Shown: positions 805 to 63,882 of the stretch, piece after piece
Position numbering within the stretch: position 1 is the stretch's first letter
Layout of the letters: each line of letters starts with the position of its first letter
DNA from: Desulfomonile tiedjei
GTDB taxonomy: Bacteria > Desulfobacterota > Desulfomonilia > Desulfomonilales > Desulfomonilaceae
NCBI GenBank assembly: GCA_016218715.1
Contig: JACRDG010000054.1
Coordinates: 13,940 to 77,939 of the forward strand
Direction: 5' to 3'
DNA: 64,000 nucleotides
The notes under the pieces: generated by a model
The model's database searches: none
The model's input: only the letters and a program-made list of their open reading frames with translations
Told to the model about the DNA's origin: nothing
Position numbers and translations under genes: made by a program

Positions 805-3800
805 TTAAAGGTGACCACTATCCAGTACTCTCCTTATGGTACCGAGGATGTCCTTTGCATCGTACGGTTTGCTGACGAATCCTTTTGCACCTCTGCCCTT
901 TTGGTCGCGCGTCAGGCCGTTTGAAGAATACCCACTCGCAACCAGGACGCTGACATCCGGATCGACACGCAACAGTTCTTCCAGGCAACGATGGCCGCCC
1001 ATTCCCGGCATGATAAGGTCCAAGATTATCAGGGCAATTTCCTCCCTGTGAACGGTGTACTTCTCCAATGCCTCTTCTCCGCTGCACGCGGTGATCACCT
1101 GATAACCTCCCATCTCAATCATGTGCCGTCCCATCTCGCGAATCCGGTCATCGTCATCGACAAGGAGAATGGTCTCCGTCCCAAACGCGGGCATTTCCCT
1201 TGTCAACGTCAAATCGGGGATAAGCTCGGTAGCAGACACGGGCAAGTAGATCTTGAAGGATGTCCCTCTTCCGGGTTCGCTGTAGCATCTGATGTACCCT
1301 CCGTGCTGGGACACTATGCCGTGGACCATGGACAAGCCAAGGCCCGTGCCTCCAGCACTGGTCTTCGTGGTGAAAAAGGGTTCGAATATTCGGTCCAGTA
1401 CGTCGGGTTCTATGCCCACACCAGTGTCCGAGACGGAGAGGAGAACATACTTGCCCTTCTTAGCATCAAGGTGGGTCCTCAGGTATTCGTCGCTCAGGGA
1501 AACGTTGCTCGTTTCTATCAGGAGCCGTCCTCCAGCCGGCATGGCGTGCTGTGCGTTGACTCCTAGATTGAGCATTACTTGCTCGATCTGCGCTGGGTCA
1601 GCATCAACAATTCTGAGATCATCAGCGAGCAGCAGATCGATTTGGATCATCCGAGGGAGTGTACGAAGGAGAAGTTTTCCCACTCTACGGATCTCGTCAT
1701 TTAAGTCTATCGGGCGGATCTTCGATTCACTTTTCCGACTGAACGTGAGTATCCGCCCTACGAGATCGGCTCCGTCTCGTGCAGCGTGCTGAATGACTTC
1801 CAGCTTCTTCCGGTCAGGGTCTCCCGGCAATTTCTTCATAAGGAGAATATCTGAATAACCCAAGATGGCCTGGAGCAGGTTATTGAAATCATGCGCAATT
1901 CCACCGGCTAAGGTCCCGACTGCCTCCATCTTTTGTGCATGAAAAAGCTGCTTCGAAAGCGCCAACTGATCAGTAATGTCGCGTTTCATCCCAACGAAGT
2001 TTGTTATCGCGCCCGATGCGTCCCGCACCGGCGATATAGTGGCTTCCTCGGTGTAGAGGGTTCCGTCCTTCCTCTTGTTTACAAATCTCCCTGTCCAGAC
2101 GTCCCCACTCTTTATGGTTTGCCATAGGTGTTCGTAGAATGCCTTGTCCTGCACTCCGCTCTTGAGGACGCGAGGGTTATTGCCCAGAAGCTCTTCTCTT
2201 GCGTACCCCGTCATCCTCCCCAACGACGGGTTCACGTACTGGATCGTGCCATCTGTGTCCGTGATGACCACACCTTCTGCCGCGTACTCCAACGCGGTTG
2301 CGGAGCGTCGCTGGGCCAACTCGGAGTGCCTGGCCTCTGCAATCTTCCACACGGAATCCATGAGCAAAGCGAGTTGCCGCACATCACTTTCATCATAATC
2401 CGTGGCCTTGTTAGCGACCCCGATCACAGCCACGATCCTGTCTCTCCAGAAGACCGGGATTGTCATAAAATTGTGCAGTTCAACATGACCGCTTGGGTAG
2501 CCCTTTTTCAAGGGATTGGGCGCCTGGAAGTCATTCACGACGATCGGCTTGCGTTGTTTTACCGCTTCCCCCCACATGCCAGTCTTCTCGACTTCGTACA
2601 CTGTTTGCGGCTCAGCGACTTCACACTCTTTCATCACCTGCTTTGACCAGGAGTTCAGCTCTAAGAGGTTCTTTTCCTCATCGTAGAAGTAGATGTACCC
2701 CACTTCGCTTTCCGTCAGCTTTACGGCTTCGTTTAGGGTGAAATCCAGAACACCCTGAATGCTTTCCGCTGGATGTTGAGATATGTCGTAAAGACTCTGC
2801 AACCGGGCTTCATTAAGTCTAATCTGCTTCTCCGCACGCTTGCGTTCGGAGATATCCATCGCTGTGAACACCATCCCATGCGACAGATCTCCTGGAACAA
2901 CAGCCGATGAACTCAGTAAGACATCGAACGCCGAGCCGTCTTTTCGCTGAAAGCGAGTCTCTACCGACCCCGTTCCGTGTCTGATGACATCCGGATGCTT
3001 CTCCCTCCCAACACGCAGGAACTCTTCCTCAGTCTCGTAAAGGATTCTCGCACTCTGTCCGGCGAGTTCCTCCCTGGAATATCCCAACATGGTGCACAGA
3101 AGCTGATTAGTCCATCCCAGGGTACGGTTTGCGCTCACCTGGCCAATACCGACGGGAGCCGCCTGTAACAGGCTCCGCAATGTTGCTTCACTTTTTCGGA
3201 GAGCTTCCTCCGCCTCCTTCCAGTCCTCCACATCTCTTGTGACCGAGAGGATATGAGGCTCTCCGCCGAGGACAATGATACGGGCCGACATAAGACCGGT
3301 CCGAACGCGGCCATCTTTGAGGCGGAATTGGGCTTCAAGGTTCCGTACCTGTCCGTCCTCCTTGAGCCCTGCAAAAAGGCGTTCTCTATCCGCCGGGTCG
3401 TCCCAGATGTTGATCTCCAAAGAGGATTTTCCGATCACATCCTCTCTCGTGTATCCTGTAAGTTCGGTAAAGCCCATATTGATGTCAACGCACAGTCCGT
3501 CATCGAGACGATTGATATTCACCGCATCGGGACTGGTATGGAACGCGTTCCGAAAACGCTCCTCACTCTCCTGGAGGGCCTCCTCCGCACGCCTGCGCTC
3601 GGTTATGTCCAGCATTGTTATCAGGTTAGCAGGGCGTCCCTGGAATTGGACAGTTTTGGAAAATATGTCCACCCATTTGGTGATGCCGGATTTTGTGATG
3701 ATCCGAAATGAGTAGTGCGGCACCTGGTCTGCGTCGCCCGCCTGTTTCATGCGGGCCTGCCGCAGGACGAGCGAACGGTCGTCTGGATGCGCAAGGTCGA

Positions 3801-5853
3801 GGAATTGCTCGGGCCGCCACCCAAGAATCTCGTCCACCGAATACTCGAGGAGGGAGGCCATGGCCTCGTTGGCGTAGTGGTAAACCCCATCCTGCAAGAT
3901 AGCTACCGACATAAGTGATTGCTCTGAGAGCAGCCTGAAAATCTGTTGACTTTCAGAGAGGGCGATCTCCATACGCTTACGGTCGCTTATGTCTCTCACG
4001 ATTCCTTCGACACCGGCTGTGGTGCCGTCTCTATTCTTGAAAAGTCTCGCACTGGTAGAAATCCATACAACTCCACCATTCTTGTGCTTGAGTCTCGTCT
4101 GGAAATCGTTGACGAAACCATTTTCGACTATGAGTTCCACGAAGTCTATCCTATCAGACGGATTGACGTAGAGTTCGGCTACATTTAGACCTACCCACTC
4201 TTCAGGTTTGAAACCCAGAACCCTCTCCAAAGCCGGAGAGAGAAAAATCAGCGTTCCATCCATGGTGGCGCGGTAGAAGACATCCTGGAGGTTGTCGATG
4301 ATACGGCGGAACTCTTCTTCGCTCTCACGAAGCTGCTCCTCAGCGTGCCAGCGTTCAGTGATGTCCTCACACGTCATCAAGTGGTGGCCCGCAAGGAGTT
4401 GTGCCGGCCTGAAGTGTATCACCTTGTCTGTACCGTCTTTGCACTTTACTGTGAATATATGGGGACGTTGTTCTCCCGGCGGGGCTTCACGGCAGTCTTC
4501 GACCCAAGCGGAGATCGCTTCTCTCCTCAGGCGGGGCTCGGGAAAAGCCTTACGAAACCATTGACGCCCGTTGGGCACTTCTTCCAGAGAGTAACCAAAC
4601 GTTTCCAAGAAGTTCGGATTGGCATACCGAAATCCCCCGTCTTTATCTATAATGACCAAGCCAAAAGGGGCATTCTCGACAAGCTTCTGAAACTGTTGCT
4701 TCTCGATTTGCAGGAGGTCTTCCGCCTTCTTCAAATCTGAGATATCTCTCATCGTTCCAATCATCCCAACGGGTTTGCCTTGGCGGTCCCTGAGCAGGGA
4801 ATTGTGCATCAGAGTCGGAAAAGGCGTGCCATCCCGCCGCACATGCCAGACCTCCCCCTTGAACTGCCCTGTCTCGCGAACAAGGCGGTTCGCGGCTGCC
4901 ACCTGCGGCATCTGGTCCTCGGTGTGGAAAACGGACAGGTGGCTGCCTTTGAGTTCATCAGGGGAGTACCCGTGCATGTCCGCGAAAGCACTATTGAGGA
5001 ATGTGATATTGCCATCCAGGTCTACCACTGCGATTCCTTCATGACTCTGTTCAATCGCTTCCCCAAGCAGTCTGATTTCCTCTTGAGCCCGTTTCTGGTC
5101 CGTTACATCTCGGACCCACACTTGAACTCCGCTTTCTCCCTCAAACAGGACTGCCTTTGCTCTTATCTCTCCTTCGAGAGACTTTCCCTCTTTTGATTGA
5201 AGTTTGACCTCATAATGGTCGATCACGCTTTCACCGCGCAATCGTGCCTGCGCTCTCTCACGGACCATCGGCTGATGTTCGGGGTGATAGATGATCCAAT
5301 GGTCCTTTCCAATGAGTTCCCCCGGTTCGTAGCCCAACATTTCGTGGAGAAGAGAATTAGCGAATACGATCTCTGTGCCTTTCTGGACAAAGATCCCATC
5401 AAAGCTGTCCTCGACAAGGGTCCTGTATCTCTGCTCGCTCTCCCTCACCCGTTTGTCAGCCGCATGCTTTAGGAGGGCTGTATCTACCTTACTTTTCAGC
5501 TCCAGTAACGTGGCGGTCTTGGCCACATACCCATAAGGCTGAGTCGTCTTGACTCTGTCCAGCAGGTCCTCCTCAGTGTACCCTGTGAGGTAGACCACAG
5601 GAATATCGAATCGATTACAAATCCGCTCGGCAGCCTCTACCCCGTCGATCCTTCCTTCGATCTCGATGTCCATGAGAAGGAGATCGGGCTTGAACTCTTC
5701 CGTGGCTCGAACGGCCTCTTCTCCTTTAGACACCACCCCTGTTACCTCATGGCCGAGATTCCTCAGAGTTCGGGCCATTTCTTCGCCGAGCTGGGTGTCG
5801 TCCGCCCAGATTAGGATTCTTGGCGCCGCGGTATTCCTCCGTTCATCGGTCAT
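805..5853 (-). CDS. Hybrid sensor histidine kinase: REC - long PAS/PAC array - GAF - PAS - HisKA - HATPase_c - REC
   Basis: 1682-aa ORF; ATG 5853 is preceded by AGGAGGGGGG. N-terminal receiver (ILIWADD...DLLLMDIEI). Roughly 7-9 PAS modules. One GAF (YIYFYDEEKNLLELNSW...IPVFWRDRIVAVIGVANK). H-box GGIAHDFNNLL, ATPase motifs DTGVGI / GTGLGLSMV, and a C-terminal receiver (ILLVDDDD...LDLIMPGMGG...SKPY). Confidence 0.9.
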   Translation of the reverse strand: MTDERRNTAAPRILIWADDTQLGEEMARTLRNLGHEVTGVVSKGEEAVRATEEFKPDLLLMDIEIEGRIDGVEAAERICNRFDIPVVYLTGYTEEDLLDRVKTTQPYGYVAKTATLLELKSKVDTALLKHAADKRVRESEQRYRTLVEDSFDGIFVQKGTEIVFANSLLHEMLGYEPGELIGKDHWIIYHPEHQPMVRERAQARLRGESVIDHYEVKLQSKEGKSLEGEIRAKAVLFEGESGVQVWVRDVTDQKRAQEEIRLLGEAIEQSHEGIAVVDLDGNITFLNSAFADMHGYSPDELKGSHLSVFHTEDQMPQVAAANRLVRETGQFKGEVWHVRRDGTPFPTLMHNSLLRDRQGKPVGMIGTMRDISDLKKAEDLLQIEKQQFQKLVENAPFGLVIIDKDGGFRYANPNFLETFGYSLEEVPNGRQWFRKAFPEPRLRREAISAWVEDCREAPPGEQRPHIFTVKCKDGTDKVIHFRPAQLLAGHHLMTCEDITERWHAEEQLRESEEEFRRIIDNLQDVFYRATMDGTLIFLSPALERVLGFKPEEWVGLNVAELYVNPSDRIDFVELIVENGFVNDFQTRLKHKNGGVVWISTSARLFKNRDGTTAGVEGIVRDISDRKRMEIALSESQQIFRLLSEQSLMSVAILQDGVYHYANEAMASLLEYSVDEILGWRPEQFLDLAHPDDRSLVLRQARMKQAGDADQVPHYSFRIITKSGITKWVDIFSKTVQFQGRPANLITMLDITERRRAEEALQESEERFRNAFHTSPDAVNINRLDDGLCVDINMGFTELTGYTREDVIGKSSLEINIWDDPADRERLFAGLKEDGQVRNLEAQFRLKDGRVRTGLMSARIIVLGGEPHILSVTRDVEDWKEAEEALRKSEATLRSLLQAAPVGIGQVSANRTLGWTNQLLCTMLGYSREELAGQSARILYETEEEFLRVGREKHPDVIRHGTGSVETRFQRKDGSAFDVLLSSSAVVPGDLSHGMVFTAMDISERKRAEKQIRLNEARLQSLYDISQHPAESIQGVLDFTLNEAVKLTESEVGYIYFYDEEKNLLELNSWSKQVMKECEVAEPQTVYEVEKTGMWGEAVKQRKPIVVNDFQAPNPLKKGYPSGHVELHNFMTIPVFWRDRIVAVIGVANKATDYDESDVRQLALLMDSVWKIAEARHSELAQRRSATALEYAAEGVVITDTDGTIQYVNPSLGRMTGYAREELLGNNPRVLKSGVQDKAFYEHLWQTIKSGDVWTGRFVNKRKDGTLYTEEATISPVRDASGAITNFVGMKRDITDQLALSKQLFHAQKMEAVGTLAGGIAHDFNNLLQAILGYSDILLMKKLPGDPDRKKLEVIQHAARDGADLVGRILTFSRKSESKIRPIDLNDEIRRVGKLLLRTLPRMIQIDLLLADDLRIVDADPAQIEQVMLNLGVNAQHAMPAGGRLLIETSNVSLSDEYLRTHLDAKKGKYVLLSVSDTGVGIEPDVLDRIFEPFFTTKTSAGGTGLGLSMVHGIVSQHGGYIRCYSEPGRGTSFKIYLPVSATELIPDLTLTREMPAFGTETILLVDDDDRIREMGRHMIEMGGYQVITACSGEEALEKYTVHREEIALIILDLIMPGMGGHRCLEELLRVDPDVSVLVASGYSSNGLTRDQKGRGAKGFVSKPYDAKDILGTIRRVLDSGHL

Positions 5854-6034: not shown

Positions 6035-6189
6035 TCTCATTCGCGATTAAACAAGTGGTACTGCCGGTGGGCGTTCCTGGGAGGTCTCCGGAGCGCAGTC
6101 AGGCCGTGCCTTCCGTAGCGGAGGAGACCTCCCAGGAGAAGCCCTTGGGAGGCTCCTCGAATATCACCGGTTATAAAGCGAATCGGTAT
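6035..6189 (+). repeat. Copy A of a ~155-bp nested-palindrome intergenic element (core in forward orientation)
   Basis: The core is CCTGGGAGGTCTCC-N33-GGAGACCTCCCAGG. Outer degenerate arms end in ...AAGCGAATCGGTAT. The same core occurs at 10756, 24209 and 44761. Spurious ORFs over all copies share the peptide GRSPERSQAVP. Confidence 0.75.
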
Positions 6190-6207
6190 CAGAAGCCGCG
6201 GCATGAG

Positions 6208-6928: not shown

Positions 6929-7495
6929 TCAAGGGTTGTTGACCTGACCAACGTCTAACCATTCAGCCAATGTGAACGCGTGATCCGGGTCCAGATGCTG
7001 CGTGGAGTACAGAAATGGCGTCCCCACCGAGGTAATGGTTCGCGCAATATCTTGATACTCTCTCTGCTCTCTCATGGTTGTGAGACACTCCGCTATCTCT
7101 TCTCGGGTGAGCCCAAAAGGCGGTTCCAGGAAGCTATCTACCGGGACAGGCCGAGGGTATAGCTGAGAATTTTCTCGAACGACCTCAGCTATCAGCCAAA
7201 GCGGGTTTTCCGATTTTCGCACCAGAATTCCAGCGTATGTTTCGCTCAGGCTCTGAGCAGAATAATAGTAAGGAATTCCATTCTTCCCCGAAATCGCCTT
7301 GAGGTCTCGATTTTCTTTCAACACTTGTTTGAGCGTGGTTTCCAAATGAGCTTTCTGCTCAACATCCTCTGATTCGAGAAACCCTTGTTCTTTTAATTCG
7401 GCCAGGATCTCCTCAACTCGAACAAGCTGCCCCGATTCACTTCTGGCGTGGATGATTTTTAGAATATTGGTGCAGATTTTTGGTTCTTGCTCCAT
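6929..7495 (-). CDS. Hypothetical protein in the AOR operon (same position as YdhW in E. coli ydhYVWXUT)
   Basis: 188-aa ORF with ordinary composition. It starts 9 nt after the AOR stop and ends 13 nt before the next start. I recognise no motif; the YdhW analogy is positional only. Confidence 0.6.
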   Translation of the reverse strand: MEQEPKICTNILKIIHARSESGQLVRVEEILAELKEQGFLESEDVEQKAHLETTLKQVLKENRDLKAISGKNGIPYYYSAQSLSETYAGILVRKSENPLWLIAEVVRENSQLYPRPVPVDSFLEPPFGLTREEIAECLTTMREQREYQDIARTITSVGTPFLYSTQHLDPDHAFTLAEWLDVGQVNNP

Positions 7496-7504
7496 TGTAG
7501 CCCC

Positions 7505-9610
7505 TTAGGTCAGTAGCCCTCGTTTGGCTAGCTCATCGGCCACAGTTTCCAGACCGAGTCTCCGGTATGTCTCTCTGGTGGGAGATCCGGTTTGTTTGTC
7601 CCAGGCCATCTCCTCGTAATACATGTCCATTGCTAACTTGATGTCGTCTCTATCCATGCGGATGGTGCCCTTGCTAAACGCGGCCCTGTCCTTGGGGTCC
7701 GCGAACACCCAGTGGGGGATCGTGTCGTGCTTAGTCCGCATCTCTTTCGTGCCCATGTCGCGAATGGTCAGAGCACGATGAAGCAGGAAAATCCGCTCTG
7801 CAACCTGATCAAGCTCTTGACGAGACTTTCTGTCGCCAGTAGCTAGGCTGTAGAGCAACGATTCGATGGAGTCTTCTCCCCTATAATCTCGCTCTCGTAG
7901 GGGCGAAGCAACCCATGGCCCCATCCAGTTGCAGAGGGACAGGCAGTCGTGCAATTCCTTTCTCAGAAGCGACCATTTCGCCATCTTGGCCTTGTAGACG
8001 TTCATCGGCGTGAAATCCGCAACTCCGTCTACCGCGTCAGGTGCTCCCCAAAGCTCGACCGCCAGCCTCTTTTGGACCTCTAGAGGCAATCCGTTTCGAG
8101 TGAAATTGCTGTGGGAATGGCATTGGGCATCACGATTGTATTGCGTGTTAATAATGACTCCGCATTGTCCGGCATCTTCGTTTGAATGATGTTTGGGGTG
8201 CCCAAACTTCCAGTAAAGGAGTTCATGGTTTTCCAGCCACTCCTGCTCCGGGATACCCCACCGTTCGAGAAGGTATCCGGTCCCCAACCCCAGTGCGGTA
8301 GCCAATTCGCCTTGCTTATTAGCGATCTTTGGAAGAAGTTCGAACAGGAATGTGGGATCTCCTTCTTCGTACTTGTCCCACGAATAGCTCTTGAATTCCT
8401 TCTCCGCCACCTTACGACCGAAAATGCCATTATAATACAGCGCTTGAAAATCGCGTTGCAGTTGACCGTAATTCTCCCAGATCCCAAGATCGTCTGCCAG
8501 ATGCATGCCGACCATACACGCCTCAATCGCGGTCTGGCCCCTGGGACCGTCGGGAAAGGTCTTAAAGAAGGCTTTGCCAAACAGTAGCCCGACGCAGGTG
8601 TTCTGCCCCACTTCCGGAATACCATATTTTGCGGCAACCGCCGGGACTTTGAGCATGGTATGGCAACGTATGGGGCAAGCTGTGCAGCCATTTCCTCTGA
8701 CCGTGTACTGCCAAGCCTTGTCGCCGAGAAAGAAGGCTGCATTGTTCGTTCGATATGCGATCCTATTGAGGTTGTGGGGCTCGCACGCACCCGTGTCGAT
8801 GTTCGGGTCCGAGGCGCCCCATCTCCGACCGGCCGAAGCCATCCATCGCGAACCCGCGTTGTAGTGTTCCGCCCACGGTTGAGGACTATTGGGGACCACG
8901 TTTTGGTTATTGGCTCCCAGAAGAGAAAGGTGCAATTTGATGGCCTTCTCCCATTCTTCTTTGTTCCCGGCGATACGGACACTGCCGGTCCCTCGAACAC
9001 CTATGGCTTTGAGGTTCTTAGACCCCATGACCCCGCCAACCCCGCCGGCGGAATGAGAATAGGAATTCATCACCACGGACATGGGCACCAAGTTCTCACC
9101 TGCTTGGCCAATGGCAGCCACCGTAGCCTCTGGTCCCATCTGCTGATTAATTTCAATTGTAGACCGCCGTATGCCCTGCCCCCAGAGTTGTCGGGCATCC
9201 TTGATTTCTGTCCTTCCATCCATAACTGAGAGCCACACCGGATGGTCAGCCTTGCCTTCAATGATGATGGCGTCATAACCGGCATACTTGAGCTCCGCTG
9301 CAAAGTGACCGCCCATATGACCACTCGCAACCAAGGGTCTGGGCCAACAAGTAGGCCACAAAGTTGTTATGGCAGTCCTTCCATTACAGGGAGCGCCCGT
9401 CCCGGCCAAAGGGCCAACTCCAAAGACGATCTTGTTCTCTGGATCAAAAGGTTTGGTTCCAGCCTGAACCTCGTCCCAAATAACCTTGTAGCCTATTCCG
9501 GTTCCGCCCAAATAGTCCTTATATTGCTCCACGGTATCATCAGTTGACATTCTCCCCGTCGATAGATCGACCCGCAGGACTTTGCCTGCCCATCCTCCGT
9601 ACTTTGCCAT
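7505..9610 (-). CDS. Aldehyde:ferredoxin-oxidoreductase-family W/Mo-pterin enzyme, 700 aa (YdhV-like)
   Basis: ATG 9610 has GGAGAGGAG upstream; the ORF-track start 9655 adds 15 codons. AOR-family hallmarks: MAKYGGWAGKVLRVDLSTG, LGGTGIG, AAIGQAGENLV, cluster motif GCTACPIRC, and DCLSLCNW. The length equals that of E. coli YdhV, not the ~600-aa archaeal AORs. Confidence 0.9.
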   Translation of the reverse strand: MAKYGGWAGKVLRVDLSTGRMSTDDTVEQYKDYLGGTGIGYKVIWDEVQAGTKPFDPENKIVFGVGPLAGTGAPCNGRTAITTLWPTCWPRPLVASGHMGGHFAAELKYAGYDAIIIEGKADHPVWLSVMDGRTEIKDARQLWGQGIRRSTIEINQQMGPEATVAAIGQAGENLVPMSVVMNSYSHSAGGVGGVMGSKNLKAIGVRGTGSVRIAGNKEEWEKAIKLHLSLLGANNQNVVPNSPQPWAEHYNAGSRWMASAGRRWGASDPNIDTGACEPHNLNRIAYRTNNAAFFLGDKAWQYTVRGNGCTACPIRCHTMLKVPAVAAKYGIPEVGQNTCVGLLFGKAFFKTFPDGPRGQTAIEACMVGMHLADDLGIWENYGQLQRDFQALYYNGIFGRKVAEKEFKSYSWDKYEEGDPTFLFELLPKIANKQGELATALGLGTGYLLERWGIPEQEWLENHELLYWKFGHPKHHSNEDAGQCGVIINTQYNRDAQCHSHSNFTRNGLPLEVQKRLAVELWGAPDAVDGVADFTPMNVYKAKMAKWSLLRKELHDCLSLCNWMGPWVASPLRERDYRGEDSIESLLYSLATGDRKSRQELDQVAERIFLLHRALTIRDMGTKEMRTKHDTIPHWVFADPKDRAAFSKGTIRMDRDDIKLAMDMYYEEMAWDKQTGSPTRETYRRLGLETVADELAKRGLLT

Positions 9611-9630
9611 AATTCTTAGTCTCCTCTCCG

Positions 9631-10362
9631 TCACTTCTTGTGGCAATCGATACAAGTCTGAGCCTTCTCGGGGGAAACAACGGCAGTGGGCACTACTCTT
9701 GGTGGAACCTTGTCCGTCAAGTCACGCCAAGCGACGTAGCTAAGGGCTCCGGAAGGACAGGCCTCGACACACTTAGGGTTTCCCTCGCATAGGAAACATT
9801 TGGTGGCCTTATTGGTGTCCGAATCGAATGACATCATTTCCCAGGGACAAGCTCGCTGACACATTTTGCAGCCAGTACACTTGTTGGGGTCTACAACGCG
9901 GGCACCGGTAGACGGGCTCACAACGATGGCGTCATTTGGACAGGCGTTCGCGCAAGGCACGGGATGAGGACATTGTTTGCAGAGGTCCTGAATAATTAGG
10001 CCGTTTCCCCAATTGCCTTGGGCACGCAGCCCGGCGTACGGGCCTTTTGGTCCAAAATTGAGGTTTCGGCCAATCTTTATTCGCGCCATTGTTGGAGAGG
10101 CTTTTCCATCGTTAAACTCAGTACAGGCCAGTTCGCACCTCCGGCAGCCGACACATTGAGTAGCATCTGCGATTACGAGCCCCTCAGCCTGATCGACAAT
10201 GATGAGAGGCGGCTCTTTAGCCCCTCTTGCCTCCAAAGCGGAAACCGCAACAATGATACCTCCGGTCATGATCAGAAACTCTCGCCGCGAAAGCGAATGG
10301 CTTGAATTTGTGAAATTCAGGGCCTTTTCCAAAACTTGATGCTTTTGGTATTCGCCGCTCAT
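9631..10362 (-). CDS. Tat-signal 4x[4Fe-4S] ferredoxin-like subunit (YdhX/DmsB-like)
   Basis: ATG 10362. Twin-arginine leader SRREFLIMTGGIIVAVSALEA. Four Cys motifs: CVGCRRCELAC, CKQCPHPVPCANACP, CTGCKMCQRACP and CFLCEGNPKCVEACP. The C-terminus is ...TCIDCHKK. Confidence 0.85.
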   Translation of the reverse strand: MSGEYQKHQVLEKALNFTNSSHSLSRREFLIMTGGIIVAVSALEARGAKEPPLIIVDQAEGLVIADATQCVGCRRCELACTEFNDGKASPTMARIKIGRNLNFGPKGPYAGLRAQGNWGNGLIIQDLCKQCPHPVPCANACPNDAIVVSPSTGARVVDPNKCTGCKMCQRACPWEMMSFDSDTNKATKCFLCEGNPKCVEACPSGALSYVAWRDLTDKVPPRVVPTAVVSPEKAQTCIDCHKK

Positions 10363-10755
10363 CTTCTTCCTTTTTTGTCCTCGGCAATCTTGGTCTGTCT
10401 TACCACGGCTCGATTGCAGGAAAGTCACTGCCGTGAGAATGTTGGCCAGAATGTCAACGTCCTTCTTCGGGTCTCTGGAAGAAGGACAATCTAAGGCCTA
10501 GGCTGCCTGCTTGTGACTGCTCATCCTGGAGCCCAATTTCTTTGAGGGACCTCCGTGAAACATTCCAAACCCCTTGTCAGGAAATCGTTCTATATCGTGA
10601 CCCAGTCAGGATAACTCACAATTGCGGCATCGTCAACAATCTGGGCCGCAGGCGCGCTGGCTTTCTTTAATTCCACATTGAGCGGCACAATCGTACGATC
10701 AACAGCGGTCTTTACGGAACAGCTGCCGCCGCTCATGCTCTGAAAGACGTATCTC

Positions 10756-10912
10756 ATACCAATGTGCAGTTCCATTTGTAACATCCGAGGACTCTGCTCT
10801 GGGCTTTTCCTGGGAGGCCTCCTCCGCTACGGACGGCACAGCCTGACTGCGCTCCGGAGACCTCCCAGGAGCGCCCTTCAGCAATATTACTTATTGAATC
10901 GCACATTGGTAT
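10756..10912 (-). repeat. Copy B of the nested-palindrome element (core reversed relative to copy A)
   Basis: ATACCAATGTGC...CCTGGGAGGCCTCCTCCGCTACGGACGGCACAGCCTGACTGCGCTCCGGAGACCTCCCAGG...GCACATTGGTAT. The terminal arms are inverted copies of each other. The element abuts the stop codon of the VOC gene. Confidence 0.8.
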
Positions 10913-11331
10913 TAGACCTGTTGTCCTTCCTCATGACACTTCGCCTCGATAAGGTTTCCTTCCGGGTCCCGAAAATAGACCGACGTTCCGGTACCGTGCG
11001 CACCCCACCGCGGGACAGGGCCCACTTCTATCGGCACCGCGTCGGCTTGAAGGCGCTCCAGCAGTTCCTGCCAGGTCTCCTTGCTCAACGCAATACAGAA
11101 GTGGTTCAAATTCTCGCGGCCTTCTCCGCTCCGACTGCTCGCTTGCCACATCTTCTTCGGAAAAAGATCGATTATCGTGTCAGCATTCAGTCGCACGGAC
11201 GGGAATGGGACGTTTCCGGACCGGTATTCGTCGAGCCGTTCGGTTGGAAACTGGAGTACCTTCTCATAGAAAGCGATCATCTTCTCATCATCTTCTACAT
11301 TCAAGACGATATGGTCCATCACGCATTGCAT
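10912..11331 (-). CDS. Glyoxalase/bleomycin-resistance/dioxygenase (VOC) family protein
   Basis: ATG 11331 has GGGAGGA 6 nt upstream. MQCVMDHIVLNVEDDEKMIAFYEKVL...HFCIAL...GTSVYFRDPEGNLIE is typical of the VOC fold. The ORF-track start 11472 (TTG) adds 47 codons with no SD. Confidence 0.8.
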   Translation of the reverse strand: MQCVMDHIVLNVEDDEKMIAFYEKVLQFPTERLDEYRSGNVPFPSVRLNADTIIDLFPKKMWQASSRSGEGRENLNHFCIALSKETWQELLERLQADAVPIEVGPVPRWGAHGTGTSVYFRDPEGNLIEAKCHEEGQQV

Positions 11332-11856
11332 TCTGGTTCCTCCCAAAAGATAAATCACCAAGTTCCTGCTTCGCAGGTCTACTCGGGCGCGGTCTCCTTT
11401 CTTGGTTAGCTTATACTGCTTTCGCTTCTTGGGATGTATGTCCAGCGGCTTCTGAACTTCGGGACGAGGCAATCAAAGACGAGGACGGGTCCCAAGAGGA
11501 TTCCGTGATCGGCATACTGGCGGCGCAGGAAGTTTCGCGTTCTCTTGAAGTACCGCCAATGTTTCAGCCCCTAAGGATCGAGAGTGCTCTTTTCATCGGA
11601 GGTCTCCAAAGGACGACCCCAATCATGGGGGTCGGGATCCTCTGCGGGTACGAACACATTGTGGATCTTGCCACATTCATGCCAGACTTTCAGCAGCGCA
11701 GCACGCTTGTCGTGTTCGTGGTCCTTTTCTATGGCCGTCCTCCGCTAGAGTGGGAGGTTACCATAATCAGCGGTGGGGCTTCACGAAAAAATTCGCGGTA
11801 GCGGGCTGCGCAAAGAACCCCGGTTCCGGCCGCGCTATTGCAGGTGCCAACAGCCA

Positions 11857-18948: not shown

Positions 18949-19287
18949 ATGAAAACAACTGCAGTCAAGATTGGCGAGGAAGGATTGGCAAAGCGCCTTG
19001 TTAAGGACGTTCACTGCGAATTAACAGCGGCGCTCAAGGGGGCCAGCCTTTGGGATAGTCTCGATTACTTCGAAATTTCGATGGGAATGCAGAAAAGGCA
19101 AGATGCGCCGTTTCCCAGATTCGAATGGCTGTCCTGCGCTCCTGTTACCAGTGCCGGCCATCATTATGTCTACATCGGTGCGGTCTTCAACGGCAGGCAC
19201 AATCTGATTTTTGTGGGTAAGACATCTAAGGGATTCGAGAGAGCATGTGAGGTGGCAAACAGGTGTGCCCGCGAATTGGGGGCCTGA
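18949..19287 (+). CDS. Hypothetical protein (112 aa)
   Basis: ORF with ordinary composition and a weak SD. I recognise no motif. Confidence 0.45.
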   Translation: MKTTAVKIGEEGLAKRLVKDVHCELTAALKGASLWDSLDYFEISMGMQKRQDAPFPRFEWLSCAPVTSAGHHYVYIGAVFNGRHNLIFVGKTSKGFERACEVANRCARELGA

Positions 19288-19781
19288 AAGCCGGTTGCAT
19301 AACTCAATACAGGCGGCCGACCGCCCATCTTGCCAAACTTGTGAACCTTTCCCGGCTTGTGGCCGGCCCCCAAAGGACCACGCACGCCGGGTAGTATGGG
19401 GTTGCTCTATCGCGCACCGATCGCTCTCGGTGTTCGAGATGTCCTCGGTCGACTCTTCAGCCGTCCCTAATAATCTCAGTGTGGGAGGTTTCCAGTCATC
19501 ACTGACGGGAACCGTGCAAGGCAAAAGAACGAGAATAGCCTTCGCCATTCCTCGGAACAGTCCTGAGTCTCACCGGAGTTTTTACGATTATACGCTTGCC
19601 AAGACGTTTCTCCTGACAATAAACTATATTTCACATCTTCTGGCCGTCACTCCTGTAAACGCCGGCGGCGGTTATCGAGACGGATTGCCTTGTATCCTGG
19701 CCCAGTGCGCACGTCGCGAACCACATGCCCCGTGCACGGTGGTTCGAGGATTCAGATAAGGCGTTTCCGAAGTCTCATGGC

Positions 19782-23684: not shown

Positions 23685-23746
23685 ATGACGCCACTCCCAA
23701 GGCCAAGGCAGCCGGAATGCTTGTTACCACATATTTCCCTGTTCAT
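23681..23746 (-). CDS. 21-codon upstream ORF, translationally coupled to the MinD-ferredoxin gene (speculative)
   Basis: My own translation: MNREICGNKHSGCLGLGSGVI. GGAGG lies 6 nt before ATG 23746. The TGA stop overlaps the ATG of the next gene (ATATGA). Confidence 0.35.
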   Translation of the reverse strand: MNREICGNKHSGCLGLGSGVI

Positions 23747-24012
23747 CGTTCGCCTCCATCGGCGTTACGCATGTGGAAAGGGGCTTGAGACGGACAGTTT
23801 CCGCACCCGCTCGTTTCTCAATCCTTTTCCACTGGCCGGGAGGACCCTCGCCAGGCAACACCGTCCGAGGGCCACTACCTCACACGCCGTGCGGGCGCTC
23901 TCCCGATATGAACCACCGGTACCGCCTCGCGTTCGGCTTATTGGAGACCTTCCCTTCATGTCGTAGGACAACCTCCGGACAAGCTCCCTCAGAATTGCCC
24001 CCCGTCGGAGGC

Positions 24013-24030
24013 ATGCAGCTTCTGTGCCAT
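24013..24030 (-). promoter_or_regulatory. Weak candidate sigma54 promoter upstream of the Fe-S carrier cluster
   Basis: The minus strand reads ATGGCACAGAAGCTGCAT. GG-N10-GC spacing is correct, but the -12 box is CTGC rather than TTGC, and the site is ~270 nt from the first start codon. Confidence 0.25.
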
Positions 24031-24208
24031 ATACGTGGCTGTGACCACCAGCCTACGGGAGAGTCCCGAATGTCAGGAAAACAAAGGCTTGAAGAGAGGC
24101 AAAATGTTGCAAGGTGCACCGTGTTTGATGGCAGCAGGGTGCATTGTGCACCCAAGCCCCCGTTGGGGGGAATATCGACGGACAGATGGGGCGAAGAAAG
24201 AACCGCTC

Positions 24209-24343
24209 ATACCTATGCGCGATCCAAAAAGGAATGCTGCTGACGGGCGCTCCTGGGAGGTCTCCGGAGCGCAGTCAGGCTGTGCCGTCCGGAGCTCACA
24301 GGAAGCTCCTCTGAATATTACTTATTGAAAAGCGCATTGGTAT
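24209..24343 (+). repeat. Copy C of the nested-palindrome element (forward core, ~22-bp internal deletion)
   Basis: ATACCTATGCGC...CCTGGGAGGTCTCCGGAGCGCAGTCAGGCTGTGCCGTCCG then truncated ...GCGCATTGGTAT. The right half of the 14-bp core repeat is missing. Confidence 0.7.
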
Positions 24344-24423
24344 CAAAGGTAGCAGACGAATGGGTATCACATTGAGGTGGAAAAAGAGGTCGTCCAAACG
24401 TGCATGAGATTTTGCAACCAGCT

Positions 24424-41098: not shown

Positions 41099-41451
41099 GG
41101 CACCCTCCTCTCGTCCTCCTGGCTGATTATAGCTTGTCCGCGGCTGGACGATTGTTGTAGCCCTTCGGAGAATCGCAGACCGCCCCTCTTCCCTGGGCCC
41201 ACCTCGAATTCCCTCCGAGGGCCCGCGGCAACTTCTTGATCATAAGATACTGCGGTGACATCAGCGTGGCAAGGGTGCCTGAGGAAGAGCCACTGGTTCT
41301 CTTGGGCCAGTCGCGCAATCGAATTCTTGTATCGGTGTTGTCCCGGGAGTGCGGAAAGAACCGCAGGGTCGCCTTGTCATGGACTACGAGAATCGGACGG
41401 ATGGCTAAGTACACCGTTTCATAAATACGGTCGCGGATTTTAGGTTTGTTG

Positions 41452-41508
41452 GTGGGACAGGCATCTTGCCTGTCACTTCTTAATGGACCGGCAAGATGCC
41501 GGCCCCAC
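41452..41508. repeat. Inverted pair of the 23-nt GC-rich hairpin motif
   Basis: GTGGGACAGGCATCTTGCCTGTCAC - 10 nt - GACCGGCAAGATGCCGGCCCCAC. Each half is itself a hairpin (GGCA-NNN-TGCC core). Confidence 0.55.
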
Positions 41509-41608
41509 TGAACAGCCAAGAGCAGAGCCTCCAAGCGAGACCGTATTCATGAAAACAAGTACTAAGGCCGACTCTTGCGGCCTGGTTCTGTTTCACGAGA
41601 TTTTCCTG

Positions 41609-44194: not shown

Positions 44195-44707
44195 TCATGC
44201 GTTTCCCATCGTTGCGTCGCTGTCAATGCGCTGCGCCGTACTGTCCGCAGCCTCCCGAAGGTCGATAAACTGTTTTCCCGCTGGAGTTATCTGAACGTAG
44301 TCGGACAGGTTGGCCCCTTCACTGGCTATTTGCTTTATTGAATGAACGGTGATGTATCCGATGTCTCTGAGGTGATAAAGCTCTCTTTCGAGGCCGTTGG
44401 ACATCCTATAAGGGCCAAAATGCCCTGAGCCGATTTTCTTCAGGTTCACGTACATGAGAGGGGACATGGTGGCCATAAACAATGCCGCTATTTTGGAGTC
44501 CAAGCTGCTCACGGCCTCATGGACCGTGTCAAGTTCTGCTCTGAATTCCTGCAACTTGACTGGCCCAAGCTCGATTCCGCCTCCGCTTTCGATCCGCGCG
44601 GATATCCCTTTGGCGAGCTTTCGGATCTCATCACGGTACTGTCCGACGAGCCACAGAATGACACCTGCCCAGATCAAGGTCTGAATGATAGAAGCGAACT
44701 CCTTCAT
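44195..44707 (-). CDS. Hypothetical membrane-anchored protein (170 aa)
   Basis: ATG 44707 follows GGGGGA. One N-terminal TM segment (IIQTLIWAGVILWLVGQY). I recognise no motif. Confidence 0.55.
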   Translation of the reverse strand: MKEFASIIQTLIWAGVILWLVGQYRDEIRKLAKGISARIESGGGIELGPVKLQEFRAELDTVHEAVSSLDSKIAALFMATMSPLMYVNLKKIGSGHFGPYRMSNGLERELYHLRDIGYITVHSIKQIASEGANLSDYVQITPAGKQFIDLREAADSTAQRIDSDATMGNA

Positions 44708-44760
44708 GTTATCCCCCTTTTCGTGTGTTTTGATTCTTGGCTCTGTCCTGACGTGTCGTG

Positions 44761-44916
44761 ATACCGATTCGCTTTTCAACTTGTAATATTCGAGAGCGTG
44801 CCAAGGGCTTTTCCTGGGAGGTCTCCTCCGCTGCGAACGGCACAGCCTGACTGCGCTCTGGAGACCTCCCAGGAGCGCCCATCGGCGGCATCACATTTTG
44901 AATCGCGAATCGGTAT
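44761..44916 (-). repeat. Copy D of the nested-palindrome element (reverse core)
   Basis: ATACCGATTCGC...CCTGGGAGGTCTCCTCCGCTGCGAACGGCACAGCCTGACTGCGCTCTGGAGACCTCCCAGG...GCGAATCGGTAT. It lies 54 nt upstream of the 44707 start codon. Confidence 0.8.
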
Positions 44917-45358
44917 GATGAGGCTCCGCCACTCGGCTAAGGGTCTGAAACCCCTCCCCCTACTCGAGGGCACGCACTCTTGCCTTCGCCGCTCATCGGC
45001 TTCCCTCTTCCCAATGGCCAGAACAAATTGGGCACTTCAAGAAAACCGACACACCCCCATCGTTTCAGGTTTTCAGATCGAGCAAGTTCTGTCAAGTGCC
45101 CTCTAACGGGTGAACGGATACACAGCGGACCAGATTGTGGTTGACGACCGGACGGATGGGAAGGTATTCTCGGATACTGGTGGCTATCAGCCTCGTTGGA
45201 CAAGATCGTCTCAGTTCCACGTCCGCCGCGTTCCCCGGAGAGAAAGTGGCAGCCATTTGAGAGGTAAGGACCGGTTGCATGGCCCGCCAACTAACCCAAG
45301 CCGCAGTTGACGAGCGCGCAATAGGCTCGGGAAGAGCTGTTGTCCATTGGGAGGGGTC

Positions 45359-47547: not shown

Positions 47548-48084
47548 TTACTCCTTTGAAGGTCCAAGCTGCTCCCGGCATCGGATAAAGCCTACGGACT
47601 TCATGGTCATTACCACTTCACCGTGCTGGTTCCTCGCCTCGGCAAAGACGCGAATGGACCCCTGATCGGGTTTTGATTGAGAGCGCTGGGCATCGAGGAC
47701 GGTGACGCGGAGCGAAAGCGTGTCTCCCGGCCGGACAGGCTTGAGCCAGCGCAATTCGTCCACACCGGGTGACCCGAGACTCGCCTCGCGAGACACGAAA
47801 TGGTCGACCAGGAGCCGCATGGCCTGGCTCGCGGTGTACCAACCGCTGGCGATCAAACCGCCGTACACGGACTTCTTCGCAGCCGCAGGATCGGTATGAA
47901 ACGGTTGTGGATCGAAGCGCCGAGCGAAGGCGATCATGTCGGCTTCGTCGAGCGTGACACAGCCGAACTCAAGAACCTCGCCAGCGACGTAGTCCTCGAA
48001 ATATCGGTCCGTGGGCGCAGCGCCGGGCGACGGCGCCTCCGCAGTGGGCTTGCATCCGGTCGATCCGTCGGTTTTTATCTCCAT
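47548..48084 (-). CDS. MaoC-like (R)-hydratase / hotdog-fold protein
   Basis: [30 protein letters not shown]...[20 protein letters not shown]. Confidence 0.85.
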
Positions 48085-49464: not shown

Positions 49465-49548
49465 CCGGCAAGGTGGGTGCTGAAACGATTTCGCACTGAG
49501 ACGGGAAAGGTGGCCAACCCTAACCCTGTCGCAAAAGGAGTGGGAAAT

Positions 49549-49571
49549 CACCGGCAAGATGCCGGCGCCAC
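49549..49571 (-). repeat. Copy of the 23-nt hairpin motif in the glk-zwf spacer
   Basis: CACCGGCAAGATGCCGGCGCCAC is the reverse complement of GTGGCGCCGGCATCTTGCCGGTG. Confidence 0.5.
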
Positions 49572-49688
49572 TAAGAGTCTCCGCTCCCTCCGGGAGGGGG
49601 ACAGGGTGAGGGCATCAGGATTCCTCGTTGGACAGAACGATCGTAAGAAGCCCTCGCTGCGGTGCCAGGGTGTTGGATAGGGGGACTC

Positions 49689-58371: not shown

Positions 58372-61300
58372 ATGAGCCGCGTTCAACGTATTCTCGTTGT
58401 GGATGACGAGCAGGGAAACCGAACCCTGTTGGAAGCCATGCTTGCATCTCTCGGCTACGAGTCTGACCTCGCCCATAATGGCTCGGAGGCCCTCGAAAGG
58501 CTTACTCCCGCGATCGATCTTGTCCTTCTGGATGTGCTCATGCCGGGTCTGGACGGGTTCGAAGTCACGCGACGAATCCGAAGTCACGCGGTCTGCAAAG
58601 CCGTGCCTGTCATTATGGTGACCGCGCTTGAAGGGAAAAAGGATCGACTTCGCGCGGTGGCCGCAGGCGCCAACGACTTCATTTGCAAACCGATCGACAG
58701 GATGGAATTGCAGATTCGTGTGGCATCCCTTCTCAGGATGAAAGAAGCCCAGGACGCCTTGCGGCAAAGTGAAGAGAAATACCGAGAGCTCGTGGAGCAT
58801 TCCAACAGCATTATCCTGCGGTGGAACCGGGACGGCCGTGTCACCTTTTTGAACGAGTTCGGCCAGACCTTCTTCGGATATAGCGGAGAGGAAGCCATCG
58901 GCCGGCACATGGTTGGCACCATCGTTCCGGAAACCGGCCAGGCCGGGCCCAACTTGGCGCAGATGATTCGAGACATCGGCACGTACCCGGAACGCTATGT
59001 GAACGATCAAAACGAGAGTATGCGCCGCAACGGGGAACGGGTCTGGATTTCCTGGACCAACAGGCCGATATTCGACCCACACGGCAGCGTTGTGGAAATA
59101 CTGTCCGTGGGCAACGATCACACCGACCTGAAACGGGCAGAGGAGGAATTGCGAAAGTCCAAAGAGGAGCTGCAGATAAGGGTGGCGGAGCGGACGGCCG
59201 AATTGCAGAGCGCCAACGAGCGCTTGCAGATCGAACTTGCCGAACGTAAACGAGCCGAGGCGCTCCTCCGAGAATCGGAAGAGAAGTATCGTCTCGTCGT
59301 AGAAAGAGCCCTGGAAGGAATTTTTGTGGCCCAGGACGGAATGCTGAGATTCGTCAATCCGAAGACCGTTGGTCTCCTGACGTACACCGAAGAAGAGTTG
59401 CTCTCAAAACCGTTCACGGATTTCGTTTTCCCGGATGACAGGCAGATGGTGTATGAGCGCCACGTACGGAGATTGCGAGGCGAGGCGTTGCCCAGCCGCT
59501 ATCCCTTTCGGCTTCTGGACAAGGACGGAACCGTGAAGTGGGTCGAGATCGACAGTGCCGTGATCCCCTGGGATGACAGGCCTGCTGCGCTTGTTTTCAT
59601 GACGGACATCACCGAACGGATGCTGATGGAAGAAGCGCTCAGGGAGAGTGAGGAATGGTATCGTACGCTCGTAGAGAATAGTTTTGACGGTCTCTTCGTC
59701 CAGAAAGGCCCCAAGATCGTCTTTGCCAATGTTCGTCTTTGTGAAATGCTGGGTTATTCGGGAAACGAACTGGAGGGCATGGATCACTGGCTCATCTATC
59801 ATCCGGATTATCAGAGCATTACCCGCGACAGAGCCCTGGCGCGCATGAGGGGCAAAGAAGTGGAGCCTCGGTATGAAGTCAAATTGCAGCGCAAGGACGG
59901 GACGTTCTTCCCTGGAGAAATCACCGCGAGAGCACTGAAAGTCCGAGGCGAGCCGGGCGTGCAGGTCTGGATAAGAGACCTTTCGAAAAGGAAACGCTCG
60001 GAGAAAGTGCAAAGGCGTTTGGCCACTGCCGTGGAACAGGCGGCTGAAGCAATCATCATCACCGATGTCGAAGGAACCATTCAGTACGTGAATCCTGCCT
60101 TTGAGAGTATCTCCGGGTATGCCCGCGATGAAGTCCTCGGCCGGAACCCCAGGGTGCTGCAGAGCGGATCCCATGACCAAGAGTTCTACAAGGATTTATG
60201 GGATACGATTACAGGCGGACACGTTTGGACAGGCAGTTTCATCAACAAGCGAAAGGACGGACGCTCAATCCATTCAGACACGACAATTTCACCTGTCAAG
60301 GATTCCAGCGGGAAGATTGTGAACTTCGTGGCAGTAGGCCGGGACATGACCGACCACAGAGAACTCTCGAAGCAGCTTCTCCATGCCCAAAAGATGGAGG
60401 CGATAGGAACCCTGTCAGGAGGGATTGCCCATGACTTCAACAACCTTTTGACCGTGGTGCTTGGCTTCACCGAAATCATGCTTATGGAGAAGAATGAAAA
60501 CGACCGCGAGTATGCAGACCTTCAGAAAATACTCCATGCAGCCAAGAGCGGGGCTGAACTGGTTCAGCGGTTGCTTACTTTCAGCAGGAGGGTGGAGCCG
60601 CAGCCCGTTCCCTTGAATCTCAACAAACAGATTACGCAGGTGGAGAAGCTGCTGCGGCGCACGATTCCCAAGATGATCGATATTCAGCTTAATCTGTCGG
60701 GCCACCTTGCGGAAATTGACGCGGACCCATCGCAAATCGAACTCGTCCTGATGAATTTGGCCGTAAACGCTCGTGACGCGATGCCCGATGGCGGGAAACT
60801 CTCCATTGGAACGCGAAACGTTTCGCTTGATGATGAATATTGCAGGCTCCACGTCGGAGCCACCCCCGGGGATTACGTGCTGCTGGCAGTTTCCGACACT
60901 GGCCACGGAATGGATAGAAACACGCAAGAACACATATTCGAACCATTTTACACGACCAAAGAACTGGGCCGCGGGACAGGCTTGGGGCTCGCGATGGTGT
61001 ACGGGATCGTGAGCCAACATCACGGTCACATCACGTGCGAAAGTCAGGTCGGCTCCGGCACCACCTTCTCCGTCCATTTTCCTGCCGTCAAAGGACCGGC
61101 TGTACAGGAAGTCGACGAGACTGCAGTGATGCCCGCGTTCGGAACTGAAACCCTCATGCTGGTTGATGACGAAGAGTTCGTGCGGGAATTGGGTGCCCGG
61201 ATACTCGACAAGGCCGGCTACACGGTTTTGGCGGCGAGCAACGGGATGGAAGCACGCGAACTATTTGAGAAAGAGAGATCACGTGTTTCCCTGGTGGTAC

Positions 61301-61512
61301 TCGACCTCATCATGCCGGAAATGGGCGGGAAAGAATGTCTCAGGGAACTTCTCAAGATCGATCCGCAGGTCAGGGTCCTTGTCACCAGCGGTTACTCAGC
61401 AGATGCGCCGGTGAAGGATTGCCTGGAGGCCGGTGCAAAGGGATTCGTCAGAAAACCGTTCAGGATGAAGGAGTTGCTCCGGCAGGTCCGAAGAGTCTTG
61501 GACGAGTGTTGA
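58372..61512 (+). CDS. Hybrid sensor histidine kinase: REC - PAS x4-5 - HisKA - HATPase_c - REC
   Basis: 1046 aa. N-terminal receiver ILVVDDEQ...LLDVLMPGLDG...CKP. PAS modules separated by coiled coils. H-box GGIAHDFNNLL. ATPase motifs DTGHGM and GTGLGLAMV. C-terminal receiver LMLVDDEE...LDLIMPEMGG...RKPF. Confidence 0.9.
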   Translation: MSRVQRILVVDDEQGNRTLLEAMLASLGYESDLAHNGSEALERLTPAIDLVLLDVLMPGLDGFEVTRRIRSHAVCKAVPVIMVTALEGKKDRLRAVAAGANDFICKPIDRMELQIRVASLLRMKEAQDALRQSEEKYRELVEHSNSIILRWNRDGRVTFLNEFGQTFFGYSGEEAIGRHMVGTIVPETGQAGPNLAQMIRDIGTYPERYVNDQNESMRRNGERVWISWTNRPIFDPHGSVVEILSVGNDHTDLKRAEEELRKSKEELQIRVAERTAELQSANERLQIELAERKRAEALLRESEEKYRLVVERALEGIFVAQDGMLRFVNPKTVGLLTYTEEELLSKPFTDFVFPDDRQMVYERHVRRLRGEALPSRYPFRLLDKDGTVKWVEIDSAVIPWDDRPAALVFMTDITERMLMEEALRESEEWYRTLVENSFDGLFVQKGPKIVFANVRLCEMLGYSGNELEGMDHWLIYHPDYQSITRDRALARMRGKEVEPRYEVKLQRKDGTFFPGEITARALKVRGEPGVQVWIRDLSKRKRSEKVQRRLATAVEQAAEAIIITDVEGTIQYVNPAFESISGYARDEVLGRNPRVLQSGSHDQEFYKDLWDTITGGHVWTGSFINKRKDGRSIHSDTTISPVKDSSGKIVNFVAVGRDMTDHRELSKQLLHAQKMEAIGTLSGGIAHDFNNLLTVVLGFTEIMLMEKNENDREYADLQKILHAAKSGAELVQRLLTFSRRVEPQPVPLNLNKQITQVEKLLRRTIPKMIDIQLNLSGHLAEIDADPSQIELVLMNLAVNARDAMPDGGKLSIGTRNVSLDDEYCRLHVGATPGDYVLLAVSDTGHGMDRNTQEHIFEPFYTTKELGRGTGLGLAMVYGIVSQHHGHITCESQVGSGTTFSVHFPAVKGPAVQEVDETAVMPAFGTETLMLVDDEEFVRELGARILDKAGYTVLAASNGMEARELFEKERSRVSLVVLDLIMPEMGGKECLRELLKIDPQVRVLVTSGYSADAPVKDCLEAGAKGFVRKPFRMKELLRQVRRVLDEC

Positions 61513-63405: not shown

Positions 63406-63882
63406 TTACGTCCCCCGACGTTGTAGGAAGTTGAGAGCCTTCATGGTCATGACCACTTCGCTATGCTGATTGAGGACCTCGATGTACGAACGAACCAGCC
63501 CCCGGTCCGGCTTGGAGCGTGATGGTTTGGCTTCAAGGACTGTGACTCGGAGCGACAGCATATCCCCGGGGCGCACCGGCTTGAGCCACCGCAGCTCATC
63601 CACACCGGGCGAACCCAGGCTCGCCACCCGAGAGAGGTAGTGCTCCACGAAGAGCCTCATCATCAGACTCGCCGTATGCCAGCCGCTGGCGATCAATCCG
63701 CCAAACGGGGACTGCCTCGCCGCTTCCCGATCCGTATGAAAGGGTTGCGGGTCGAACCGTTGACCGAAAGCGATGATCTCGGCTTCCTCGACGCCGATGC
63801 AACCGCATTCGTAAACCGCTCTCGGAACGTAATCCTCGAAGTAGCGGTCGTCGATCGGGGTTACGAATTTCGTATTCGTCAT
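63406..63882 (-). CDS. MaoC-like hotdog-fold hydratase (paralog of 47548..48084)
   Basis: [38 protein letters not shown]...[29 protein letters not shown]. Confidence 0.85.

Follow-up and report, generated by a model that had tools for sequence, protein, structure and literature searches.

The question raised by this locus is what kind of sequence is represented by the nested palindrome of approximately 155 nt that occurs four times in a 64,000-nt stretch of contig JACRDG010000054.1 of Desulfomonile tiedjei (the whole stretch analysed is referred to here as the window, and its first nucleotide is position 1). A preliminary description of the window had considered a non-autonomous mobile element, a REP-like family and a family of structured RNAs, and had reported that the asymmetric core of the palindrome flips its orientation within the outer arms. 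By taking into account the terminal repeats, a TNA target-site duplication, a pair of filled and empty sites, the dispersal of the copies and their decay, the first of these possibilities is strongly supported, and the family is best understood as a MITE, i.e. a non-coding, 154-155-bp remnant of a cut-and-paste DNA transposon, with an estimated probability of about 0.88.

Copies within the window

The four copies reported previously were all found, at the positions given for them, by reading of the sequence and by alignment. The 14-mer CCTGGGAGGTCTCC, when up to two mismatches are allowed, occurs 10 times in the window versus 0.74 occurrences expected by chance, a count that none of 100 shuffles reached, and seven of these 10 occurrences fall inside the four copies. 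On alignment of A (+), B (−), C (+) and D (−), homology extends along the whole ~155 nt, column identity averaging 79%, and a profile built from all copies of the family, when run on the window, matched A, B, C and D only. These four copies represent three or four subfamilies and, with the TNA triplets that flank them, are distributed as follows.

6040..6188, plus strand: copy A, subfamily S4, with the left inverted repeat lacking its 6 terminal nt (TACCGA)
6037-6039 and 6189-6191: TNA triplets of copy A, TCA, identical on both sides
10757..10911, minus strand: copy B, full length (155 nt), subfamily S2, canonical orientation on this strand
10809..10869, minus strand: core of copy B, 61 nt, a 14-bp stem (one mismatch) around an asymmetric 33-nt segment
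10754..10756: low-coordinate TNA of copy B, TCA, one C/T transition away from the TTA of the opposite side
10912..10914, minus strand: high-coordinate TNA of copy B, TTA on the plus strand, serving as TAA stop codon for a glyoxalase-family ORF
24210..24342, plus strand: copy C, with an internal deletion of ~22 nt, the core stem having lost its 3' arm
24207-24209 and 24343-24345: TNA triplets of copy C, TCA and TCA
44762..44915, minus strand: copy D, full length (154 nt), subfamily S3
44759-44761 and 44916-44918: TNA triplets of copy D, TGA and TGA

The 14-bp inverted repeat had been described as perfect in each copy, which holds for A and D but not for B, with its one mismatch, nor for C, where a single arm is left; the loss of approximately 22 bp including one core arm from copy C was confirmed by alignment. 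Copy A is probably immobile after the loss of its TACCGA end. The copy said to adjoin a stop codon is B, whose flank is the TAA stop of the ORF at 10912..11472 (−), and that said to lie 54 nt upstream of a start codon is D, the ATG being at 44707 (−). The peptide GRSPERSQAVP, proposed to be common to the spurious ORFs that the copies generate, is encoded over A and D only, the ORFs over B and C using different frames.

Orientation of the core and of the arms

The flipping of the core, as initially proposed, proved to be wrong, in that B and D are reversed as whole elements, arms included. With the core masked, the arms of all 24 complete copies tested (the deleted copy C is not scorable) find matches among other copies solely in the orientation of the core, with best arm scores of 66-95 for the core-oriented comparison versus 2-22 for the flipped one. 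With nhmmer every copy yields a whole-element score of approximately 120-180 bits in one orientation and of 17-51 bits in the other (for copy B, 160.7 bits on the minus strand versus 35.1 on the plus strand). The element inserts as a unit in either orientation. An invertible DNA switch, with the core flipped within fixed arms by site-specific recombination at the 14-bp inverted repeats, would account for the perfect 14-bp repeat that bounds the core and for the presence of both core orientations on the plus strand. However, the constant co-orientation of arms and core, the strongly one-sided nhmmer scores and the lack of a recombinase gene nearby leave such a switch with next to no credibility.

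Ends and target-site duplication

The element is 153-155 nt long and has no coding capacity. Its ends are inverted repeats, TACC(G/A)AT(T/G)(C/T)GC ... GC..AT(C/T)GGTA over the first 11-12 nt, which differ between subfamilies by paired, compensatory changes. TNA flanks the element on both sides, with C as the predominant base beyond the left triplet and G beyond the right one, so that the target can be written as C|TNA|G. The middle base discriminates between two origins of the triplets, as an extension of the inverted repeats would lead to a complementary N at the two ends and a direct duplication to the same N. Both ends are available for 25 loci; 16 of these have identical triplets, 19 have the same middle base on the two sides, and only two have complementary middle bases. 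When the right-hand flanks were permuted, a mean of 8.4 middle bases was shared, and none of 200,000 permutations reached 19. The flanking TNA is a 3-bp direct target-site duplication, and the non-identical triplets of the other nine loci are assumed to reflect later mutation.

The presence of a TA dinucleotide at both junctions (TNA|TACC ... GGTA|TNA) would also be expected of a MITE of the IS630/Tc1-mariner type, which, like Correia or RUP, duplicates TA. However, T-N-A with the same N would then have to be found outside the TA on both sides by chance, and both the same N in 19 of the 25 loci and an empty site with a single TGA (described below) fit only a 3-bp TNA duplication, making an origin of the IS630 type very improbable.

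The ends and the duplication also bear on the proposal of a REP-like family, i.e. REP/REPIN palindromes moved by RAYT, an IS200-like tyrosine transposase. The copies are indeed intergenic, GC-rich, palindromic and repeated, and they resemble both REP/REPIN and ERIC sequences as intergenic palindromic repeats with stable stem-loops, but no sequence is held in common with either. REPINs have, to our knowledge, neither a target-site duplication nor true terminal inverted repeats, and ERIC is flanked by TA, whereas the ends of the element are classic inverted repeats and its 3-bp TNA duplication is highly significant. As no Y1-transposase or RAYT was found among 40 ORFs of the window either, the REP-like assignment is unsupported and highly unlikely.

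At copy B the duplication coincides with a stop codon, and both TCA and TTA would read as stop on the strand of the glyoxalase gene; at two further loci (L019 and L015) the duplication is likewise the stop codon of a long ORF. These 3-4 cases in approximately 30 copies do not clearly exceed what is expected of an element that seeks TNA and whose survival is confined to sites outside genes.

A second family and a pair of filled and empty sites

The window also contains a single copy of a second MITE family, distinct from that of copies A-D, which is referred to as family 1.

41409..41562, plus strand: second MITE family, 154 nt, with a core unrelated to family 1
41406-41408 and 41563-41565: duplication of the second family, TAA and TAA, in a C_TAA_G context

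Its ends are GTACACCGTTTCATAAATACGGTC.../...GACCGTATTCATGAAAACAAGTAC, its interior consists of two GC-rich hairpins, GACAGGCATCTTGCCTGTC and CCGGCAAGATGCCGG, and further copies are found in loci L006, L007, L008 and L021. In L008 a family-1 element is nested inside the terminal repeat of the second family, and the filled site reads ...CCGCGACCGGACTTC TGA (154 nt) TGA AATGGCGCAC. The same family-2 sequence in L006 has the empty site, ...CCGCGACCGGACTTC TGA AATGGTGTAA, and the window copy of family 2 also has one TGA at the position that is filled in L008. The L008/L006 pair directly demonstrates insertion with 3-bp duplication.

Two other sequences share features with these families and support a modular make-up. 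One is an element found as one copy in the sequence examined from a Desulfomonilaceae MAG:

19181-19306 of JBGSLQ010000054.1 (MAG JTS-AC162): L035 element, ~123 nt

Its ends, TACCATTTCGCC... and ...AAAAGCGAATCGGTA, are as in family 1 over the first ~16 nt on each side, and it is flanked by a TAA/TAA duplication; its interior, of the GC-hairpin type, is unrelated to that of family 1. The other is a third short repeat at ~49517-49657 of the window, which matches L006 at 994-1089 and L017 at 2646-2722, has the CCGGCAAGATGCCGG hairpin module in common with the second family and contains a palindrome of the GGGACAGGGTGAGGG / CCCTC...GAGAGAGGG type that is also found in the flanks of L017 and L027.

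Copies beyond the window

In total 35 copies of family 1 were collected, corresponding to 34 distinct loci (L031 and L032 being one locus). Besides the four in the window, 27 came from JGI metagenomes (24 of them in Ga0265297), where retrieval required an exact 24-nt match within the core, and four from contigs reached through spurious ORFs, two of these being in the NCBI MAG GCA_964457565.1. Thus, the search for further copies, as envisaged in the preliminary description, led to 31 elsewhere, in metagenomes and one NCBI MAG. Most copies are located on contigs of 1-4 kb. Flanks are unrelated between loci, and homology begins and ends at the same bases throughout. Decay is seen in copies A and C and in those of L027 and L018; the L027 sequence had been considered as a longer element and was rejected, as it is a truncated copy.

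The exact 29-base core pattern gave no match in 185,579 species-representative genomes, which indicates that the family is absent from, or has diverged in, these genomes, including more than 20 Desulfomonilaceae MAGs. No copy was detected by blastn in the PLSDB plasmids, and the core pattern had no match in the IMG/VR viral contigs, in which the single match to the terminal-repeat pattern was discarded as an unrelated iteron-like region. A search by nhmmer over 1.26 Mb of AOR-anchored loci (see below) also returned no copy. Of the two open frames present in the element, one was queried against 5.8 billion proteins and retrieved only nine short hypothetical ORFs of 50-89 aa.

Immediately beyond the family-1 copy of L031, at 5289-5330 (3540-3580 of L032), there is a solo right end of 22 nt, TTATTTGAACGCGAAATGGTA, next to which come TGA and a left-end-like TACGATTCGG, an arrangement that looks like debris from more insertions at one spot. 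An ORF beyond this solo end was evaluated as a possible transposase and rejected, since it encodes a PAS-domain protein.

Core conservation and the question of a structured RNA

The element is a near-perfect palindrome with a very stable predicted fold. Values calculated for the consensus are −77.6 kcal/mol as RNA (z-score −7.9) and −43.5 kcal/mol as DNA (z-score −8.3), and the RNAs of the two strands of copy B are predicted to fold with −72 and −83 kcal/mol. Two small hairpins are predicted in the 33-nt segment of the core, closed by the 14-bp stem. Identity between subfamilies is approximately 96% in the core, 65-74% in the arms and 75-79% in the terminal repeats, so that the core is more conserved than the ends, opposite to what is usual for MITEs. 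The high core conservation is in part an ascertainment bias, since the metagenome copies were retrieved by an exact core match. Selection on the core at the level of individual copies was considered and rejected: with the 24 core columns fixed by the search pattern set aside, the density of singletons is approximately 0.32 per column, equal to that of the arms, and private mutations that are equally dense in core and arms indicate that individual copies are under no visible selection. The conservation that remains is that of the source copies, and it may stem from a function in transposition, from recombination among subfamilies or from selection for a cargo.

These features may suggest a structured non-coding RNA or a cis-regulatory RNA family, the functional part of which would be the three-way-junction core. 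The stability of the predicted fold (−72 to −83 kcal/mol, with z-scores of −7.4 to −8.5), the near identity of the 61-nt core across subfamilies with diverged arms, and the retention of the core in L018, where the arms have decayed, are all in line with such an RNA. However, Rfam matched no family at gathering thresholds in the window, and even with an E-value cutoff of 10 the best match was to mir-296 with 18 bits versus a threshold of 66, that is, noise, so that no RNA-family identity emerged from this check. The element contains no conserved promoter or intrinsic terminator, and a U run after the core hairpin is absent from the RNA of either strand. Relative to the transcription of their neighbours, copies have either orientation, and A and B, which occupy similar spacers, are opposed.

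RNAalifold predicted 47 pairs, four of which show compensatory changes, three in the terminal repeats and one in the arms; the covariation check proposed initially therefore gave compensatory changes, mostly in the terminal repeats, but none in the core, which by its invariance is uninformative in either direction, and where core substitutions do occur they disrupt pairs. Compensatory changes in the terminal repeats are expected if both ends must bind one transposase. Given, in addition, the equal density of private mutations in core and arms outside the columns fixed by the search pattern, and a target duplication and nested insertion that demand transposition anyway, the structured-RNA family is unsupported and must be regarded as improbable.

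A related proposal, which combines with the MITE nature of the element, is that the 61-nt core is a functional cargo, for instance a site bound by a protein or a signal for RNA processing, maintained by selection and carried on several MITE backbones. The related termini with a different interior in the L035 element, the hairpin modules common to other repeats of the window and the contrast between the conservation of the core and that of the arms leave room for this proposal, which is nevertheless doubtful.

Genomic context

Forty ORFs of the window, when scanned against Pfam, are ordinary chromosomal genes, which include those for a nitroreductase, ferredoxin-AOR-YdhW, a glyoxalase, a patatin, CooC-like ATPases, a molybdopterin oxidoreductase, pentose-phosphate enzymes and many sensor kinases. 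Copies A and B lie, with opposite orientations, in spacers between minus-strand genes, B having the glyoxalase gene on one side and the ferredoxin-AOR-YdhW genes on the other, and copy D is between divergent genes. The element is likely to be largely neutral at its sites.

Other features of the window are a region of ~520 nt at 23685-24206, from a CooC-like ATPase gene to copy C, without a convincing ORF or Rfam match; two paralogous MaoC-dehydratase genes, at 47574-47958 and 63414-63798, with ~73% DNA identity and 15.8 kb apart; and two large PAS/histidine-kinase genes, at 805-5853 and 58372-61512, that have inverted similar segments in common.

The AOR protein shares 93% identity with its counterpart in a MAG labelled Desulfomonile tiedjei and 80-89% with those of several Desulfomonilaceae MAGs, which places the host, an uncultured bacterium, in this family. 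At the nucleotide level the three-gene set ferredoxin-AOR-YdhW (6929-10404 of the window) is 75-86% identical in many Desulfomonilaceae and Syntrophobacterales MAGs. An orthologous empty site for A or B was searched for in 80 loci anchored on the AOR protein and was not found in them. Homology to these loci ends at ~6929 and at ~10370-10404, only ferredoxin-AOR-YdhW being syntenic, and its neighbours are different in every genome compared. That A and B form a composite transposon around the AOR genes was also considered, and rejected, as A has its own TCA/TCA duplication and the outer flanks differ.

The putative mobilising enzyme and comparison with known systems

The statement of the preliminary description that no transposase is present in the window was borne out by the Pfam scan, in which no transposase, recombinase, RAYT or Y1-transposase was found among the 40 ORFs scanned. 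A search for paired terminal repeats in the window and in 1.3 Mb of related loci revealed no autonomous element, one for inverted repeats with an identical TNA duplication at a spacing of 60-2600 bp in the 1.3 Mb revealed no longer element, and a scan of all ORFs for the YREK motif revealed no transposase. Locus L060, a candidate parent element, was discarded as a MeaB/mutase locus.

That the element behaves as an IS5-type MITE is well supported. The inverted repeats at its two ends would be bound by a DDE transposase acting in trans, which would insert the element at C|TNA|G through a 3-nt staggered cut, the repair of which would leave TNA doubled, with one triplet on each side. From the TNA target, the mobilising enzyme is most likely an IS5-family transposase that is IS1031-like, or something similar. 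The 3-bp TNA duplication, the palindromic extended target (here C-TNA-G), the short terminal repeats and the occurrence as non-coding sequences of approximately 150 bp in several subfamilies are features that the element has in common with the IS5-family MITEs (IS1031/IS427/ISL2) and with the Tourist elements of PIF/Harbinger. The PIF/Harbinger-Tourist elements are eukaryotic relatives of the IS5-type system and likewise generate a 3-bp TNA duplication. A preference for 5'-TNA-3' and a 3-bp direct repeat are documented for the IS1031 group of the IS5 family (PMC12016507). The termini of the element (TACCGATTCGC...) are, however, unlike the IS5-family ends with which they were compared (GAACCTGTCTAG..., GAGACC... 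and ACGTCAG...): no match was found to the published ends of ISLrh (GAACCTGTCTAGTATCT), of ISPg1/ISPg4/ISPg9 (GAGAC...) and of ISPg3 (ACGTCAG...), the element starting with TACC and the published ends with GAACCTG, GAGACC or ACGTCAG.

The Correia elements (CREE) of Neisseria resemble the element in size (~104-157 bp), in being near-palindromes that form a long hairpin once transcribed, and in their mainly intergenic location, often near gene ends and in both orientations. Unlike the element, they duplicate TA, have 26-bp terminal repeats of unrelated sequence and are restricted to Neisseria, and no promoter-like site is conserved in the element. Known effects of Correia act through hairpin cleavage by RNase III, through promoters and through an IHF site (PMC10969869, PMC3184786), and those of ERIC involve RNase E (PMC10969869). 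Correia effects offer a model for a possible role of the element: where co-transcribed, it would give a very stable hairpin that could alter the processing or the stability of mRNAs, as is the case for Correia and ERIC. The Chunjie MITE comes from Geobacter uraniireducens, of a related group formerly also placed in the Deltaproteobacteria and, as far as its account in PMC10969869 goes, has conserved terminal and direct repeats, many partial copies and insertions within operons; being longer (178-235 bp), it differs from the element, the comparison being one of published descriptions.

Implications

The copies in the window represent a new family within a known kind of MITE, whose other copies have so far come from metagenomes and one MAG only. 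For the specialist it is an unsurprising, ordinary example of a well-known class. Its practical consequences concern annotation, as the element yields spurious ORFs, nine such hypothetical proteins being already present in public databases, and assembly, as metagenome assemblies are broken by the element, so that masking would help. The copies are markers for strain typing, and the termini provide a defined handle toward finding the transposase. As exemplified by copy B, insertion can reuse the stop codon of a gene and leave the gene undamaged. The family shows that TNA-targeting transposition has been active in this uncultured Desulfomonilaceae lineage, where the same TNA target has been used by at least two families of 154-bp MITEs.
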